Source of the DNA: an uncultured Oscillospiraceae bacterium
GTDB taxonomy: Bacteria; Bacillota; Clostridia; Oscillospirales; Oscillospiraceae
Reading direction: 5' to 3'
Length of the DNA: 64,000 nt
Assembly (NCBI GenBank): GCA_910579485.1
Contig: CAJTVO010000002.1
Span: forward strand, 7,804-71,803
Below, one piece after another: positions 20,352 through 23,444 of this stretch; positions within the stretch are counted from its first letter, which is position 1, and every line of letters starts with the position of its first letter. The notes beneath the pieces are model-generated. The model did not search any database, was not told the DNA's origin, and worked only from the letters and a program-made list of their open reading frames with translations. A program made the position numbers and the translations under genes.

Positions 20352-21326
20352 TTAAAATTCAATCCTTCTTTGATAGTTCTCCCACCCTGTCCGCAGGGTA
20401 TCACTAATCTCTTTCCGCAGCCAGTCCGGCTCCAAGATCTGACAGAGCGATACATATTGCAGCGCCCAAAATTTCAGCCCGGCGGCTCCGGTAAACACTG
20501 CCGCGTCAAATGTCCCGTCTCCATTGTCCCGAAGCCGGGTTTCCATGCCGAAGCGGTCCAGCACATCGCTGAGCAAATCACTCTCACAGCGTAACACCGC
20601 ATGGACGGCCTCGCCAGGAAAGGGGTACACCCGCTCCCGGACATACCGCGCCAGGTCCAGCCCGGCTGGCAGCGGTTCGGCAGGCTGCTCCTCCAGCAGG
20701 ACCGGGGACTGAATCCGATCCACCCGGTAGTGGCTGATGTCCTCCGCTCCCTGATACCGGCAAATCAGGTAGTAGTTCCCGTTGGCGAAGCACAGGCCGT
20801 AGGGCGATACCCGGTAAGGCCGCTCCCGGCGGGGATGGAGGCGCTTGTCCATACCGTACTCCATGTACTGAAACTCCACCTGACAGCGGCGCGAAACAGC
20901 CTCCTCCAGCACCTCCACGGACAGGAAGGCTTCATGATTCATGCCACGCCAGGGCACTCCGGCGATGAGAGGACGGCACTGCGCCCGCTGCCAGCGGCTC
21001 AGGCCCCGCTGAAGCCTGTCCAACAGCTGTTCACACTGGCGCTGTGAGATGCCCGGAAAGGCGGACACCGCGTCCGACAGCAACTGGACCTCGGATGGCT
21101 CCAGAGAACGGGACAGCAGCCGGTAGCCCTCGCCATCGTCCTGGTACTCCGGAATGTGACAGCCGACAGCCCGCAGCTTATCCAGGGCGGTATACACAGC
21201 CCGACGGTCGTATCGCAGACCATACTCCGTCCGCAGCAGGCGCAGCAGCTCCCCCATGGCCAGGGCGTGGTCTCCGTCGGTGTGTTCAGAAAGAATCTGA
21301 TAGACGCGGAAGGGCAAAAGATTCAC
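20352..21326 (-). CDS. WYL-domain transcriptional regulator (wHTH + WYL + C-terminal extension; CapW/BrxR/DriD-like architecture)
   Basis: N-terminal wHTH (LAMGELLRLLRTEYGLRYDRRAVYTALDKLRAVG). Central WYL-type core (RPYRVSPYGLCFANGNYYLICRY...ISHYRVDRI). 324 aa. GTG start overlapping the upstream stop (GTGA). Confidence 0.8.
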   Translation of the reverse strand: MNLLPFRVYQILSEHTDGDHALAMGELLRLLRTEYGLRYDRRAVYTALDKLRAVGCHIPEYQDDGEGYRLLSRSLEPSEVQLLSDAVSAFPGISQRQCEQLLDRLQRGLSRWQRAQCRPLIAGVPWRGMNHEAFLSVEVLEEAVSRRCQVEFQYMEYGMDKRLHPRRERPYRVSPYGLCFANGNYYLICRYQGAEDISHYRVDRIQSPVLLEEQPAEPLPAGLDLARYVRERVYPFPGEAVHAVLRCESDLLSDVLDRFGMETRLRDNGDGTFDAAVFTGAAGLKFWALQYVSLCQILEPDWLRKEISDTLRTGWENYQRRIEF

Positions 21327-21925
21327 AGCAAAATCCTTTCGTCCAGCCGCACAGAGATATTGTCCGCATAGGTCAGGGAAAGCCGGTGGGCTACATCATT
21401 CAAACCTCCTCCCCGGTTGCTTCCGGTTCGGCCGATCCAGCTGGGGTCAAGGTTGAGACGCAGGACCATGTTGTCCTGCAGCTGCCGTTCTACCTGTTCC
21501 ACCGTGCGGCGGGCCGCTTCTGAGGACTGTTCCACCGGGTAGCCATCCTTCAGCAGAGTGACCTTGCCAAACAGAATAGTCATATGGTCAAAGAGCCGCT
21601 CCACGGCTTGACCCCACTCCCTGCACGCCGCATCTCTTCCGGGTACGTAAAAGTCATAGGTGGAGTAGAAATCATCAGCCACGAAACAACGCAGGTCGGT
21701 CAGCCGGTGGGGATTCTTGACCATCCAGTATTTCCTTTCCCGGTAATTTTCCAGGTGATTCCGGTTCCTGCCTGCCATATCGTCGGAAATACCGATATAA
21801 AAGGGCCGGTCCGCATCCTGATAGACGTGGAAATATACGCCCAGGCCACTGGCCTCAGATGGAATATTGTTTCCTGCCAGTAACTCCCGTGCGGAGATGC
21901 TGTGAAAGACGTGAAGATCGACCAT
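21323..21925 (-). CDS. GIY-YIG nuclease-domain-like protein
   Basis: GVYFHVYQDADRPFYIGIS matches GIY-x11-YIG and is followed by R-x-R-x-H (AGRNRNH). A later E (VEQVERQL) and N (RLNLD) are candidates for the conserved Glu/Asn. The start was chosen at the second ATG (21925) after a GGAGGG RBS (track start 21940). Confidence 0.6.
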   Translation of the reverse strand: MVDLHVFHSISARELLAGNNIPSEASGLGVYFHVYQDADRPFYIGISDDMAGRNRNHLENYRERKYWMVKNPHRLTDLRCFVADDFYSTYDFYVPGRDAACREWGQAVERLFDHMTILFGKVTLLKDGYPVEQSSEAARRTVEQVERQLQDNMVLRLNLDPSWIGRTGSNRGGGLNDVAHRLSLTYADNISVRLDERILL

Positions 21926-21954
21926 GAAAGTGCCCTCCATTTTCTTGATAGCCT

Positions 21955-21983
21955 ATTCTACCATTTCCCAGCACAAATAGCAA
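21955..21983 (-). promoter_or_regulatory. sigma-A-type promoter for the GIY-YIG/WYL operon
   Basis: Minus strand reads TTGCTA - 17 nt - TAGAAT, about 30 nt upstream of the chosen start. Confidence 0.55.
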
Positions 21984-21984
21984 T

Positions 21985-22018
21985 CACCCCCCTGTACTTG
22001 TTTTGGTACAGGGGAGTG
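21985..22018. promoter_or_regulatory. Palindrome in the divergent intergenic region (candidate WYL-regulator operator)
   Basis: CACCCCCCTGTAC - 8 nt - GTACAGGGGAGTG, with 12 of 13 arm positions complementary. It abuts the -35 of the minus-strand promoter. It also overlaps the likely promoter spacer of the plus-strand operon. Confidence 0.5.
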
Positions 22019-22075
22019 TGATATGCTTGGAACAGACCAGCGGAAAACCAGATCAGAAATGTGGAGGAGTTTTTT

Positions 22076-22984
22076 ATGCGGCGTATTATGATTGACAACC
22101 TGACCCTGCTGGTGGGCGGCACCCGGCTGGAACGGGAACAGCAAATGGACAAATTCCAAAACGCCAGTGATTTTATGACAGCGATCATACAGAATATCCG
22201 GGAAGATGACAACGGCGGGTTCCTGACACGTCTGCGCACGGTTCCGTGTTTCGCGCTGTCGGAAGTTCAGAGCATCGGCGGAAAACCGGCAACGGAACAG
22301 CTGCTGTCCGACCTGCTGATGGACCGCCAGCGGCGGGGACTTCTCACCGTATTGGGAATGGAGTATATTCCCCCGTTTATCAAACAGCTGTATCCCATTC
22401 CCTGCGGCCCGATTCCGGCAAAGATCTGCCTGCTGGAACGTGATTTGCGAAAATGCAAATTTCTGGAGTTGTATTTTGATTCCGCTCCGGAGGTGGAAAT
22501 CATCTGTGATGATTTCCGGCACTTCATGGAGACCCACCAGGTGCAGTGTGTGGTATCTCCTGCCAATGCCTTCGGACTGATGGACGGCGGGTATGATCTG
22601 GCGATCACCGAGTGGTTTGGGGACCAGCTGCAAAAGCGGGTACAGCAGTATATCATCCATCATTTTTACGGTGAACAGCCGGTGGGGACCAGCTTTTTGA
22701 TCGACGCGGGAAAGGACGGCCAGTCTCTGATCCATACGCCCTCCATGCGCACACCCCAGCGGATTTTAGACCCGCAGGTCATCTATCAATGTATGCGAAC
22801 AACCCTGATGTGTGCGGCGGAGTACAGTATCGAAAGCATCGTTATCCCAATGTTTGGAGGTTTGACGGGCGGAGTGCGCCCCCAACTGGTTGCGGATATG
22901 ATGTGGAGGGCTTACCGGCAGCTGAAAAATCCACCGGAAAGGATCGATTGGAATGATGTGGAAGAAATTAAAATCATTCTTTAG
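22076..22984 (+). CDS. macro-domain protein with an unassigned ~125-aa N-terminal region
   Basis: GGAGGAG RBS 6 nt before the ATG at 22076. The C-terminal ~175 aa carry macro-domain motifs VVSPANAFGLMDGGYDLAI, GEQPVGTSFLI, LIHTPSMRTP and PMFGGLTGG. Confidence 0.8.
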   Translation: MRRIMIDNLTLLVGGTRLEREQQMDKFQNASDFMTAIIQNIREDDNGGFLTRLRTVPCFALSEVQSIGGKPATEQLLSDLLMDRQRRGLLTVLGMEYIPPFIKQLYPIPCGPIPAKICLLERDLRKCKFLELYFDSAPEVEIICDDFRHFMETHQVQCVVSPANAFGLMDGGYDLAITEWFGDQLQKRVQQYIIHHFYGEQPVGTSFLIDAGKDGQSLIHTPSMRTPQRILDPQVIYQCMRTTLMCAAEYSIESIVIPMFGGLTGGVRPQLVADMMWRAYRQLKNPPERIDWNDVEEIKIIL

Positions 22985-23444
22985 AAAACCAGCGCGCAAA
23001 CGGGTCCTCAACAAAGAGGGCTTTGAGCGGTTAGAGCAAAAGTTCATCGAGAATACGGGCCTTATTAACGTAGACTATGCTGATGTGCAGATCCTTCGAA
23101 AAGACGAGGCAGCTTTTCTCTGGGAAAGCCCCCCTTGCACATCAATGGATGAAATGATAAGCCTGTCCCCGCTGGCAGCGGCGGAAATGGCTCCAGAGCG
23201 GGGACGGAAGATCGTGTCCGTATTGCTATATTGCAATTTGCCCTGGGAGGCGGATATTGAAAGCCTGGATGCAATATGCAGCGCAATTCAGAGAACGATT
23301 CAAGAAGATGCGGATATTGTATTCGGCTGTGAATTTGGCGAGGAATGCAGTTTCCTGCTGGCCACTTCTGAGGGAAAATGTGGTTCAAAACCTTTTGATG
23401 CCGCACATGATCGATCTGTCATGGATGAACGCTATGAAGACTGA
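22953..23444 (+). CDS. FtsZ C-terminal-domain-only protein (no GTPase domain)
   Basis: TGLINVDYADVQILRKDEAAFL and GRKIVSVLLYCNLPWEADIESLDAICSAIQRTIQEDADIVFGCEFGEE align by eye to the FtsZ T7-loop/H8 and C-terminal domain (GLINLDFADVKTIM..., GVLMNITGG..L.L.EV.EAA.I......DVNMIFG). 163 aa. It overlaps the macro gene by 32 nt. Confidence 0.65.
   Translation: MMWKKLKSFFRKPARKRVLNKEGFERLEQKFIENTGLINVDYADVQILRKDEAAFLWESPPCTSMDEMISLSPLAAAEMAPERGRKIVSVLLYCNLPWEADIESLDAICSAIQRTIQEDADIVFGCEFGEECSFLLATSEGKCGSKPFDAAHDRSVMDERYED

Follow-up and report, generated by a model that had tools for sequence, protein, structure and literature searches.

A genomic island of Oscillospiraceae with a WYL regulator and an FtsZ C-terminal-domain-only protein: a candidate cell-cycle brake

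A stretch of 64,000 nucleotides from an uncultured Oscillospiraceae bacterium (contig CAJTVO010000002.1) was analyzed over its full length, hereafter the window. The open reading frame (ORF) listing showed two back-to-back operons at positions 20352–23444, whose gene content raises a simple question: what would a WYL regulator, a GIY-YIG-like protein, a macro-domain fusion and a lone C-terminal domain of the division protein FtsZ be doing around one divergent promoter region? An earlier inspection of the letters and ORFs alone (the sequence-only reading) had described these four genes, the GTGA and 32-nucleotide (nt) overlaps between them, and a 135-bp divergent region holding a palindrome with 13-bp arms; all were re-found at the positions collected in Table 1.

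Purifying selection was evident on all four genes, with ratios of nonsynonymous to synonymous substitution rates (dN/dS) of 0.13–0.26 between the window and the homologous island L007, and they are therefore functional coding genes and not chance ORFs. These ratios, together with the many metagenome members of each family, ruled out pseudogenes or chance ORFs as an explanation. By coordinates, the GTGA overlap joins the stop of the GIY-YIG-like gene to the GTG start of the WYL gene. The mechanical ORF of the GIY-YIG-like gene spans 21323–21940 on the minus strand; its homologues begin at 21925, which gives a protein of 200 amino acids (aa). A ribosome-binding site, GGAGGAG, lies at 22064–22070 ahead of the fusion gene.

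The 163-aa protein encoded downstream of the fusion gene gave no Pfam match. The NCBIfam ftsZ model aligned to it at model positions 205–308, and in phmmer and profile searches of the PDB, 15 of the 19 profile matches were FtsZ, with GLINVDYADV aligned on the FtsZ T7 loop and EDADIVFG on strand S9. The AlphaFold2 (AF2) model of the protein, with a predicted local distance difference test (pLDDT) score of 78.6, matched dozens of FtsZ chains when compared with the PDB by Foldseek (E about 6e-6, TM 0.55, root-mean-square deviation (rmsd) about 3.2 Å, ~120 columns).

An exhaustive hidden Markov model search of 1.84 billion representative proteins placed the protein in a family of 36 clusters, referred to here as FtsZ-C. 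Two members, P0234 and P0236, passed the Pfam FtsZ_C model at 3e-13 and 1e-21, and the family profile aligned to P0236 (from a contig of only 703 bp) with an hhalign probability of 94.6% and an E of 7e-8. Sequence and predicted structure together identify the protein as genuinely homologous to the C-terminal domain of FtsZ alone. The sequence-only reading had named it so, and the Foldseek and hhalign results and the two bridging members bear this out.

The tubulin signature loop and the GTP-binding domain were absent, all FtsZ matches being limited to chain residues of about 192–328. Lacking a GTP-binding domain, the protein is therefore not an FtsZ; nor is an FtsZ N-domain encoded upstream, since the preceding gene is the macro fusion. 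The T7-loop aspartates D41 and D44 were invariant or nearly so among close relatives, dN/dS was 0.26, and three family members carried an FtsK-gamma winged-helix DNA-binding domain at the C-terminus. Other folds were considered and rejected: matches to ThiL in the PDB had an rmsd above 9 Å, and RusA-like and YjgF matches from a viral library were weak and mostly of high rmsd, FtsZ being clearly better and backed by sequence.

Two further features of the protein were recorded. A basic amphipathic N-terminal peptide, MWKKLKSFFRKPxRKR (22953–23000, residues 1–16), was kept in the distant members P0212, P0219, P0221 and P0231, only its KR-rich part being present in the P0039 subgroup; the peptide might target the membrane or bind a partner. 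The odd C-terminal tail of the window protein (GKCGSKPF...) looks like the linker in P0219, a member fused to FtsK-gamma, and like that of the L040 form.

Neighbourhoods of related genes were gathered by contig look-ups and by genome and metagenome scans, and were annotated by local tblastn. In the commonest layout, a PDDEXK_4 gene and the WYL gene are divergent from FtsZ-C, a 237-aa Metallophos protein, a 776-aa PHP/PolIII-alpha protein and an sce7726-SNF2 protein of roughly 1200 aa, with neither a macro nor a GIY-YIG-like gene. The window layout, in which the GIY-YIG-like and WYL genes face the DnaA-like/macro fusion and FtsZ-C, was also found in L019 (98% identity to the window, apparently the same species), in L007 and in L040, whose FtsZ-C protein is 36% identical to that of the window and has FtsK-gamma attached. 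By gene order, L008 showed the same divergent layout. The idea of the four genes as one cassette therefore held in part: they co-occur in L019, L007 and L040, but it is not this set of four that is conserved as a unit.

FtsZ-C led the cargo genes, except in loci with the macro fusion, where it came second. In nearly all fetched loci that retained the upstream region, the palindrome lay shortly upstream of the cargo operon, and most had the divergent WYL gene. The palindrome core, CCCCTGTAC-N8-GTACAGGGG, was invariant across 11 aligned related loci, as was the spacer TTGTTTTG, and the exact core pattern occurred once in 32 of 45 fetched loci, roughly 50–80 bp upstream of the first cargo gene. 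Three of these 32 loci had no adjacent WYL gene. Because the core is invariant and was found once in 32 loci including these three, the constant unit is the operator and promoter together with the FtsZ-C gene; the macro, GIY-YIG-like and other genes are interchangeable accessories.

In related islands retaining a WYL gene beside FtsZ-C, its product was 80–86% identical to the window regulator, and the link between WYL regulator and FtsZ fragment is the strongest association found. Loci L043, L044 and L045 combined the operator with an intact FtsZ-C operon and no adjacent WYL gene (Table 1). A tiny PDDEXK_4 remnant was seen in L045, and a remnant of the neighbouring 141-aa ORF in both L044 and L045. 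The regulator of these three loci was either lost or acts in trans.

The palindrome itself has arms complementary at 12 of 13 positions. The core is a single site in the window, against a chance expectation of 0.12 even with two mismatches allowed. From this pattern the palindrome, which the sequence-only reading had already pointed out, looks like a genuine operator. A scan of the minus strand had called it an intrinsic terminator; the site lies upstream of both divergent genes, and this call was rejected because the sequence itself, beyond its pairing, is invariant across loci.

Predicted promoters flank or overlap the palindrome on both sides. On the regulator side, a consensus scan gave a promoter with an extended -10 element; its -10 block, TATTCTACCAT, was nearly invariant in the 11 loci, and its -35 element abuts the left palindrome arm. 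The automatic scan made no call on the cargo side, where the promoter was inferred by reading the sequence: the -35-like element coincides with the palindrome spacer, so that the palindrome spans the -35 and spacer of the predicted promoter, and the TGnTAxxxT block right after the right arm was conserved in all 11 aligned loci.

The 324-aa regulator passed both curated Pfam cut-offs that matter for its class, WYL at 3.6e-13 (49.7 bits against a cut-off of 21.8) and WCX at 9.2e-6 (26.4 bits against 23.9), which agrees with the WYL part of its earlier description as an HTH-WYL protein. A generic WYL model of PADLOC matched it at 4.1e-28. Its residues 1–60 appeared winged helix-turn-helix-like by eye; no Pfam HTH model matched at E<=1, and the PADLOC model PDLC01457 aligned from residue 38. 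A phmmer search of the PDB with the regulator returned no chain at E 0.01 or better, and hence no solved WYL regulator. Its dN/dS was 0.13.

For the GIY-YIG-like protein, the motifs GVY-x11-YIG and GRNRNH were present exactly as had been noted before, and its family keeps GVY-x11-YIG, GRNRNH, VERQLQ and GSNRGGG. The Pfam GIY-YIG model remained below threshold for the window protein (E 0.015–0.016, 16 bits against a cut-off of 22.6) and likewise matched 15 of 18 family members below threshold, at best at E 0.0011; UvrC GIY-YIG domains were the top PDB profile matches of the family, at an E of 0.07 only. Because all profile tests fell below threshold, the protein, earlier assigned to the GIY-YIG nucleases, is called only GIY-YIG-like. 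The family is narrow (38 clusters), and the window protein has a weak, marginal match to the PADLOC candidate PDC-S14.

The most distant homologue of this protein, P0200 (42% identity), was found in L014/L015 at 7001–7663, between a gene for a KAP-family NTPase and one for a signal peptidase S26. Neither a WYL gene nor an FtsZ-C gene was nearby at that locus.

The leading cargo gene of the window encodes a fusion whose N-terminal part, called unassignable over ~125 aa in the sequence-only reading, could now be assigned. This part, of roughly 110 aa, gave no Pfam match. Its AF2 model had a pLDDT of about 74–91 for most of residues 1–100 and of 67 for residues 101–110, and in Foldseek it matched domain III of Bacillus subtilis DnaA (8bv3_A) with an rmsd of 2.0 Å over 109 columns; DnaC and Hda were matched as well. 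A profile of the domain searched against the whole PDB returned DnaA chains only (E 0.008–0.16), the aligned region, which is specific to DnaA, running from the Walker A helix to a little beyond Walker B, and the TIGR00362 DnaA model matched residues 31–86 at E 0.048.

By model and sequence, this N-terminus is a fragment derived from the DnaA-type AAA+ core and not a DnaA. Its P-loop reads GGT instead of GxxGxGKT and its Walker B motif LSE instead of DD, and the fragment is therefore predicted to be catalytically dead. The lid and domain IV of DnaA were also missing, both from the sequence and from the model.

The remainder of the fusion matched Pfam Macro at 6e-13 over ORF residues 165–281 (49 bits against a cut-off of 22), in line with the earlier call of a macro domain, and contained the motif N-AFGLMD-GG-Y-D, of the Nx6GG-x-D type. 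Its AF2 model was weak (pLDDT 35–47 over residues 161–230). The family phrog_2613 matched it at 1.3e-43, and the DarG model of PADLOC matched only marginally (E 0.0098). Its closest relatives were stand-alone macro proteins of ~190 aa, 57–71% identical and very common; the 302-aa fused form was limited to a small clade. No DarT-like or other ADP-ribosyltransferase was present among the neighbours in the window or in the relatives.

The accessory genes of the related islands extended the picture. The 776-aa protein was of the PolC type (NCBIfam PolC 5e-74, PDB PolC 1.5e-54), and lacked the exonuclease insert and the N-terminal domains. On manual reading its palm motif is PDAP in place of the catalytic PDxD of PolC, and the protein may be inactive as a polymerase. 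The DnaB_C protein consisted of the RecA-like C-domain of DnaB only, with intact Walker motifs, and the DnaB-like helicase matched PHROGs at 1e-61. The Metallophos protein was NinI/lambda-phosphatase-like (phrog_246, 1.6e-36), and the SNF2 protein combined an sce7726-type N-domain with a DarB-like helicase (phrog_10089, 4.5e-191). Taken with the FtsZ and DnaA fragments, the recurring theme is that of truncated copies of replisome and divisome proteins.

A second, decayed cassette was observed downstream of the main island in L020 (16721–19412) and also in L033, L034 and L035. In it, an FtsZ-C gene has a DnaA-like N-domain, frameshifted or fused, on its C-terminal half, a chimera that also exists as protein P0232. 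The L020 copy adds another NinI-like phosphatase and a PolC-like fragment; in L033–L035 only the phosphatase was seen before the fetched DNA ended.

Taken together, these results led us to favour, tentatively and at somewhat less than an even chance, a WYL-gated cell-cycle brake working by poison subunits, which would pause division and replication on a stress signal. Such a brake might serve DNA-damage tolerance of the host, phage defence or a mobile element that has since decayed. A WYL dimer would bind the invariant palindrome between both promoters, and a ligand on the WYL domain would cause the cargo to be expressed; by analogy with DriD and PafBC, this ligand might be single-stranded DNA from damage or from an invading replicon. 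The window cargo would then supply two catalytically dead, truncated copies of self-assembling cell-cycle proteins.

In an FtsZ filament, the T7 loop of the C-domain enters the GTP pocket of the next subunit. The FtsZ fragment could thus dock on the exposed GTP face at a protofilament end and present no new GTP face, and a filament capped in this way would stop growing, so that Z-ring formation would be blocked. The DnaA fragment might insert into or cap DnaA-ATP oligomers and carry to them the macro domain as an ADP-ribose reader or eraser, while the GIY-YIG-like protein, co-produced with the regulator, would process DNA. In the three members with an FtsK-gamma fusion, the FtsZ-C domain would be tethered to DNA, which recalls the logic of nucleoid occlusion.

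Binding of the regulator to the operator, the ligand, activation over repression and the capping mechanism are steps that we infer. Activation is weakly favoured because the operons of L043–L045 keep the operator without an adjacent WYL gene; repressors, too, are able to bind at sites overlapping a -35 element. Precedents exist for several of these steps. Fragments of Escherichia coli FtsZ that map to its longitudinal interfaces, the T7 loop among them, act as dominant negatives in vivo (PMC9245647), and WYL activators drive damage-induced division inhibitors, DriD acting on DidA and DdaA on AciT (PMC9186387, PMC13010146). DriD boxes lie over the -35 position of promoters without a good -35, their distance from the -10 element being fixed (PMC13004042).

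A broader version of the proposal is more doubtful, namely that bacteria, or an element residing in them, maintain a regulated kit of self-derived poison subunits, truncated and catalytically dead paralogues of the cell-cycle proteins that form polymers or rings (FtsZ-C and DnaA-macro here, PolC and DnaB_C in sister islands). The WYL regulator would switch this kit on, freezing division and replication together.

Several observations weigh against a cell-cycle brake. The T7 aspartates are missing from the most distant family members, and in structural alignments the fragment is just 14–21% identical to FtsZ chains. FtsZ and DnaA are only the predicted binding partners of the two fragments. FtsZ-C types are only 34–58% identical between islands whose other genes are 73–97% identical, and so strong a divergence is unexpected for a brake acting on a conserved host target. 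The co-occurrences are also not independent, because all islands carry one closely related regulator.

The distribution of the island points the same way. In the pattern scan only 8 of 185,579 species genomes carried it, which makes it very rare; seven of the eight loci were from Oscillospiraceae (including Oscillibacter and Pseudoflavonifractor), and the eighth, L019, was labelled 'uncultured Clostridia'. The metagenome scan yielded the common clade only. Islands were located at differing chromosomal sites and were often decayed, the WYL gene of L026, for example, being frameshifted, and several cargo genes had phage relatives (the NinI-like phosphatase and the DarB-like and DnaB-like helicases described above). 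Rarity, mobility, decay and phage-like accessories together look more like a defence or mobile island than like a core damage response.

Besides the defence module and the damage checkpoint of the sequence-only reading, a decayed early operon of a mobile element has to be considered. Among the alternatives, the one that survives best, and which we still regard as rather unlikely, is an island for anti-phage defence or abortive infection, in which WYL would be a repressor like BrxR/CapW. The fragments would shut down the infected cell or serve as decoys or baits for phage proteins directed at FtsZ or DnaA, and the nucleases and the SNF2 protein would be the effectors. BrxR-type regulators have the architecture predicted for the window regulator, and low GC content, patchiness, rearrangement and frequent decay fit such an island. 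The GC content was 0.52–0.575 across 20–24 kb against about 0.60–0.69 for most of the window, in keeping with the hand count of the sequence-only reading for the plus-strand operon. The PDDEXK_4 protein of the relatives, which also counts against the brake, matched the PADLOC candidate PDC-S26 at 3.6e-40; to this are added the weak PDC-S14 match of the GIY-YIG-like protein and the weak match of the SNF2 protein to DISARM DrmD and its match to an anti-phage PLD helicase. FtsZ to which a phage protein is bound is, moreover, a known immune trigger (PMC13423816).

However, no window protein matched a validated defence system in PADLOC, and the PDC families are candidates. The diversity of FtsZ-C types between otherwise similar islands would suit a defence role, but a decoy should resemble host FtsZ, which the FtsZ-C protein does not, and dN/dS gave no sign of positive selection in the tested pair. 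Given this pairwise value, the divergence looks like swapping of old alleles and not like ongoing positive selection. Operator-bearing operons without an adjacent WYL gene would also be dangerous if WYL repressed a toxic effector, a difficulty that would be smaller with WYL as an activator.

A second alternative, judged unlikely, is that the island is the remnant of the immunity or early region of a mobile element. WYL would then be the damage-responsive switch of the element, and the FtsZ fragment an inhibitor of host division like Kil/DicB. Replication of the element and takeover of the host would have been the task of the phosphatase, the polymerase and the helicases, and the window would hold only a stump. 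An operator and a divergent regulator opposite an operon of the early type do resemble prophage immunity regions, and the three PHROGs matches already given (phosphatase, DarB-like helicase and DnaB-like helicase) agree with this. The phosphatase alone has a viral relative, 56% identical, on an IMG/VR contig with no FtsZ-C gene beside it. In L020, an integrase fragment and a sigma-like gene adjoin the island.

The window copy is also truncated, a further point for this alternative. Its DNA similarity to L007 ends at 23376; the L007 order is FtsZ-C, phosphatase and then a DnaB_C gene, and the window island has no phosphatase gene. A tblastn search with the L007 DnaB_C protein recovered a 28-aa remnant of the N-terminus of that gene, with 18 of 28 identities (MKT..LILLAAR.GMG) and an E of 2e-6 in a small search space. 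By these alignments the window copy is a trimmed island, the DnaB_C remnant marking the deletion.

Against a mobile-element origin, 2.9 million IMG/VR contigs contained no copy of FtsZ-C, of the WYL gene or of the operator, and FtsZ-C was absent from 50,697 phage genomes (INPHARED/GenBank phages). A phage origin of the FtsZ fragment was rejected, no relative being present in IMG/VR or INPHARED. Most islands had no structural, integration or transfer genes within or beside them. The four window genes remain under purifying selection, and the cluster of the window allele comprises 186 member sequences on 13 contigs.

Reversal of ADP-ribosylation, in which the macro domain (with the phosphatase in relatives) strips ADP-ribose from host targets, the fragments are homotypic adaptors to DnaA and FtsZ and WYL senses ADP-ribose-derived ligands, is very unlikely: predicted systems of an ADP-ribosylglycohydrolase (ARG), a WYL/Nudix factor and a phosphatase, for which a role against viral ADP-ribosylation has been proposed (PMC9503650), match it in theme, the macro domain is joined covalently with the DnaA-like domain and coupled in translation to FtsZ-C, and the motif Nx6GG-x-D is present, but the macro domain is accessory because most islands with FtsZ-C have none, no ADP-ribosyltransferase is nearby and the macro model is of low confidence.

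The cell-cycle brake stays the reading that we prefer, and the features on which it and its alternatives draw are listed in Table 1.

Table 1. Features of the island and of related loci; coordinates refer to the window unless a locus is named.
Feature	Coordinates	Strand	Remarks
WYL regulator, 324 aa	20352-21326	-	second gene of regulator-side operon; start GTG
GIY-YIG-like protein, 200 aa	21323-21925	-	first gene of regulator-side operon
Divergent intergenic region, 135 bp	21941-22075		between the two operons
Predicted regulator-side promoter	21955-21983	-	TTGCTA, 17 nt, TG-n-TAGAAT; consensus scan 9/12, extended -10
Operator-like palindrome CACCCCCCTGTAC-TTGTTTTG-GTACAGGGGAGTG	21985-22018		13-bp arms, 8-bp spacer (N8)
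Predicted cargo promoter	21998-22027	+	-35-like TTGTTT (21998-22003 = palindrome spacer), 18 nt, TG-a-TATGCT (22019-22027)
DnaA-like/macro fusion, 302 aa	22076-22984	+	leading cargo gene
Degenerate DnaA-type AAA+ core (predicted)	22076-22405	+	N-terminal domain of fusion
Macro domain	22418-22984	+	remainder of fusion protein
FtsZ C-terminal-domain-only protein, 163 aa	22953-23444	+	32-nt overlap with macro gene
28-aa remnant of DnaB C-terminal-domain gene	23434-23517	+	tblastn with L007 DnaB_C protein
Response-regulator gene	23635-24297		far side of island from ABC genes
Histidine kinase gene	14858-15751		further downstream
Tyrosine recombinase ORF	7422-9128		Phage_integrase 4e-46
Operator with intact FtsZ-C operon	L043 750-1535; L044 8935-9438; L045 1292-1795		no adjacent WYL gene
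FtsK-gamma-fused FtsZ-C members	L039 1938-2936; L040 4777-5586; L043 822-1535		Pfam 2e-27, 5e-13, 7e-10
776-aa PolC-type gene	L002 7132-9462		homologues in L010, L020-L025, L027-L038

The surroundings of the island in the window were consistent with an insertion. It is flanked on one side by a response-regulator gene and on the other by the promoter of an ABC-2 transporter operon, whose histidine kinase gene is further downstream. Insertion into a Bce-like module is proposed because the response regulator is on the far side of the island from the ABC genes and the kinase; the window island may thus be an insertion, perhaps into such a module. Four to five direct repeats of TTAAG(A/G)A, ~11 nt apart, were noted at 20280–20345, a short way upstream of the gene for the ABC-transporter ATPase (minus strand, start 20260), and these are probably binding boxes of an OmpR-type response regulator.

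A scan of the genes of the 64-kb window found no integrase or transposase inside the island, as had been stated before, the closest tyrosine recombinase ORF being 11 kb away. Beside this ORF, a low-GC patch (0.45–0.49, 10–12 kb) holds a TetR regulator gene (10332–10889) and unassigned ORFs, and positions 7422–12066 may be a separate integrated element.

To our knowledge, stress-tied division inhibitors are known in few bacterial lineages, and we know of none described for gut Oscillospiraceae. If the FtsZ fragment caps filaments, nature would be using a dominant-negative fragment principle that has only recently been mapped in laboratories, and the protein would be the first natural FtsZ-fragment capper. 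It would also offer a domain-sized, genetically encoded probe for the GTP face of FtsZ, an antibiotic target. The DnaA fragment and the PolC and DnaB fragments of sister islands point to regulated subunit poisoning as a general strategy, and the poison-subunit kit, if real, would add to the natural inhibitors of the cell cycle a new class built from the fold of the target itself. The WYL regulator with its invariant, easily assayed predicted operator is in addition a tractable entry to WYL signalling in anaerobic Firmicutes. Were the island a defence system or a decoy set instead, it would represent a new logic for bacterial immunity.

The comparison with described systems began with the databases. 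In PADLOC-DB v2, the window proteins matched generic WYL models only, apart from the marginal PDC-S14 and DarG matches, and PADLOC and PHROGs together had no model for the FtsZ-C family and generic models only for the other window proteins. Literature searches on WYL with FtsZ, on FtsZ C-domain proteins with macro or WYL, and on sce7726 returned no description of the module. The sequence-only reading had known of no described system with such genes, and the PADLOC, PHROGs and literature searches gave none.

Among the closest parallels are DriD of Caulobacter and DdaA of Acinetobacter. Both are WYL activators, and the damage responses that they drive are independent of SOS and involve a division inhibitor (PMC9186387, PMC13004042, PMC13010146). 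Like the DriD-DidA and DdaA-AciT pairs, the island has a WYL-WCX regulator, with a putative HTH, and a palindrome over the -35 element at a fixed distance from the -10, and its output plausibly blocks division alongside DNA-metabolism genes. In contrast, neither DidA nor AciT is related to FtsZ, both being small membrane proteins, whereas the candidate inhibitor here is a soluble FtsZ fragment, and the DriD and DdaA regulons are core regulons whereas a rare mobile island is concerned here.

BrxR and CapW are WYL regulators of phage-defence islands with palindromic operators and variable cargo. The present island shares with theirs the regulator architecture, the divergent or upstream position of the regulator, the palindromic operator and a variable cargo in low-GC islands. 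It differs in that PADLOC recognised no BREX, CBASS or other defence genes and that the cargo consists of truncated replisome and divisome proteins.

A negative regulator derived from FtsZ is known in plants, where ARC3 contains an FtsZ-like domain. The predicted outcome for FtsZ-C, sequestering or capping of FtsZ at the longitudinal interface, is that of SulA, MciZ, MipZ, Kil and Gp0.4; none of these is homologous to FtsZ, whereas FtsZ-C is the C-terminal domain of FtsZ itself. MciZ and MipZ cap the ends of FtsZ filaments (PMC9897490; reference 22 of PMC9245647), and FtsZ-C would act on the face opposite to that capped by MciZ, namely the GTP face of the terminal subunit.

The dominant-negative FtsZ fragments of Savinov et al. 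2022 inhibit growth, presumably because they compete for the contacts between monomers (PMC9245647). The sites involved are similar, lying at the longitudinal interface and including the T7 loop; those fragments are short, laboratory-made peptides of E. coli FtsZ, whereas FtsZ-C occurs naturally as a diverged protein the size of a whole domain and has a regulator of its own.

Like Hda and DnaC, the N-domain of the fusion has the DnaA/DnaC/Hda AAA+ core fold, here with a DnaA-specific segment from the Walker A helix to sensor I; unlike them, it has no P-loop, Walker B acidic pair, lid or DNA-binding domain, and it is fused to a macro domain. DarTG and the predicted ARG-WYL/Nudix-phosphatase systems resemble the island in placing a macro domain in a setting of stress or conflict, in the WYL regulator and in the phosphatase adjacent in relatives. 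The island differs from DarTG in its marginal DarG match and missing DarT, and from the ARG systems in that its enzyme is a macro domain and not an ARG.

The regulator and the logic of the island are thus of a known kind, that of WYL-gated stress and defence operons, and the effectors are not. What is new is the natural FtsZ C-domain-only family, the fusion of a DnaA fragment with a macro domain, and their association with truncated PolC and DnaB.

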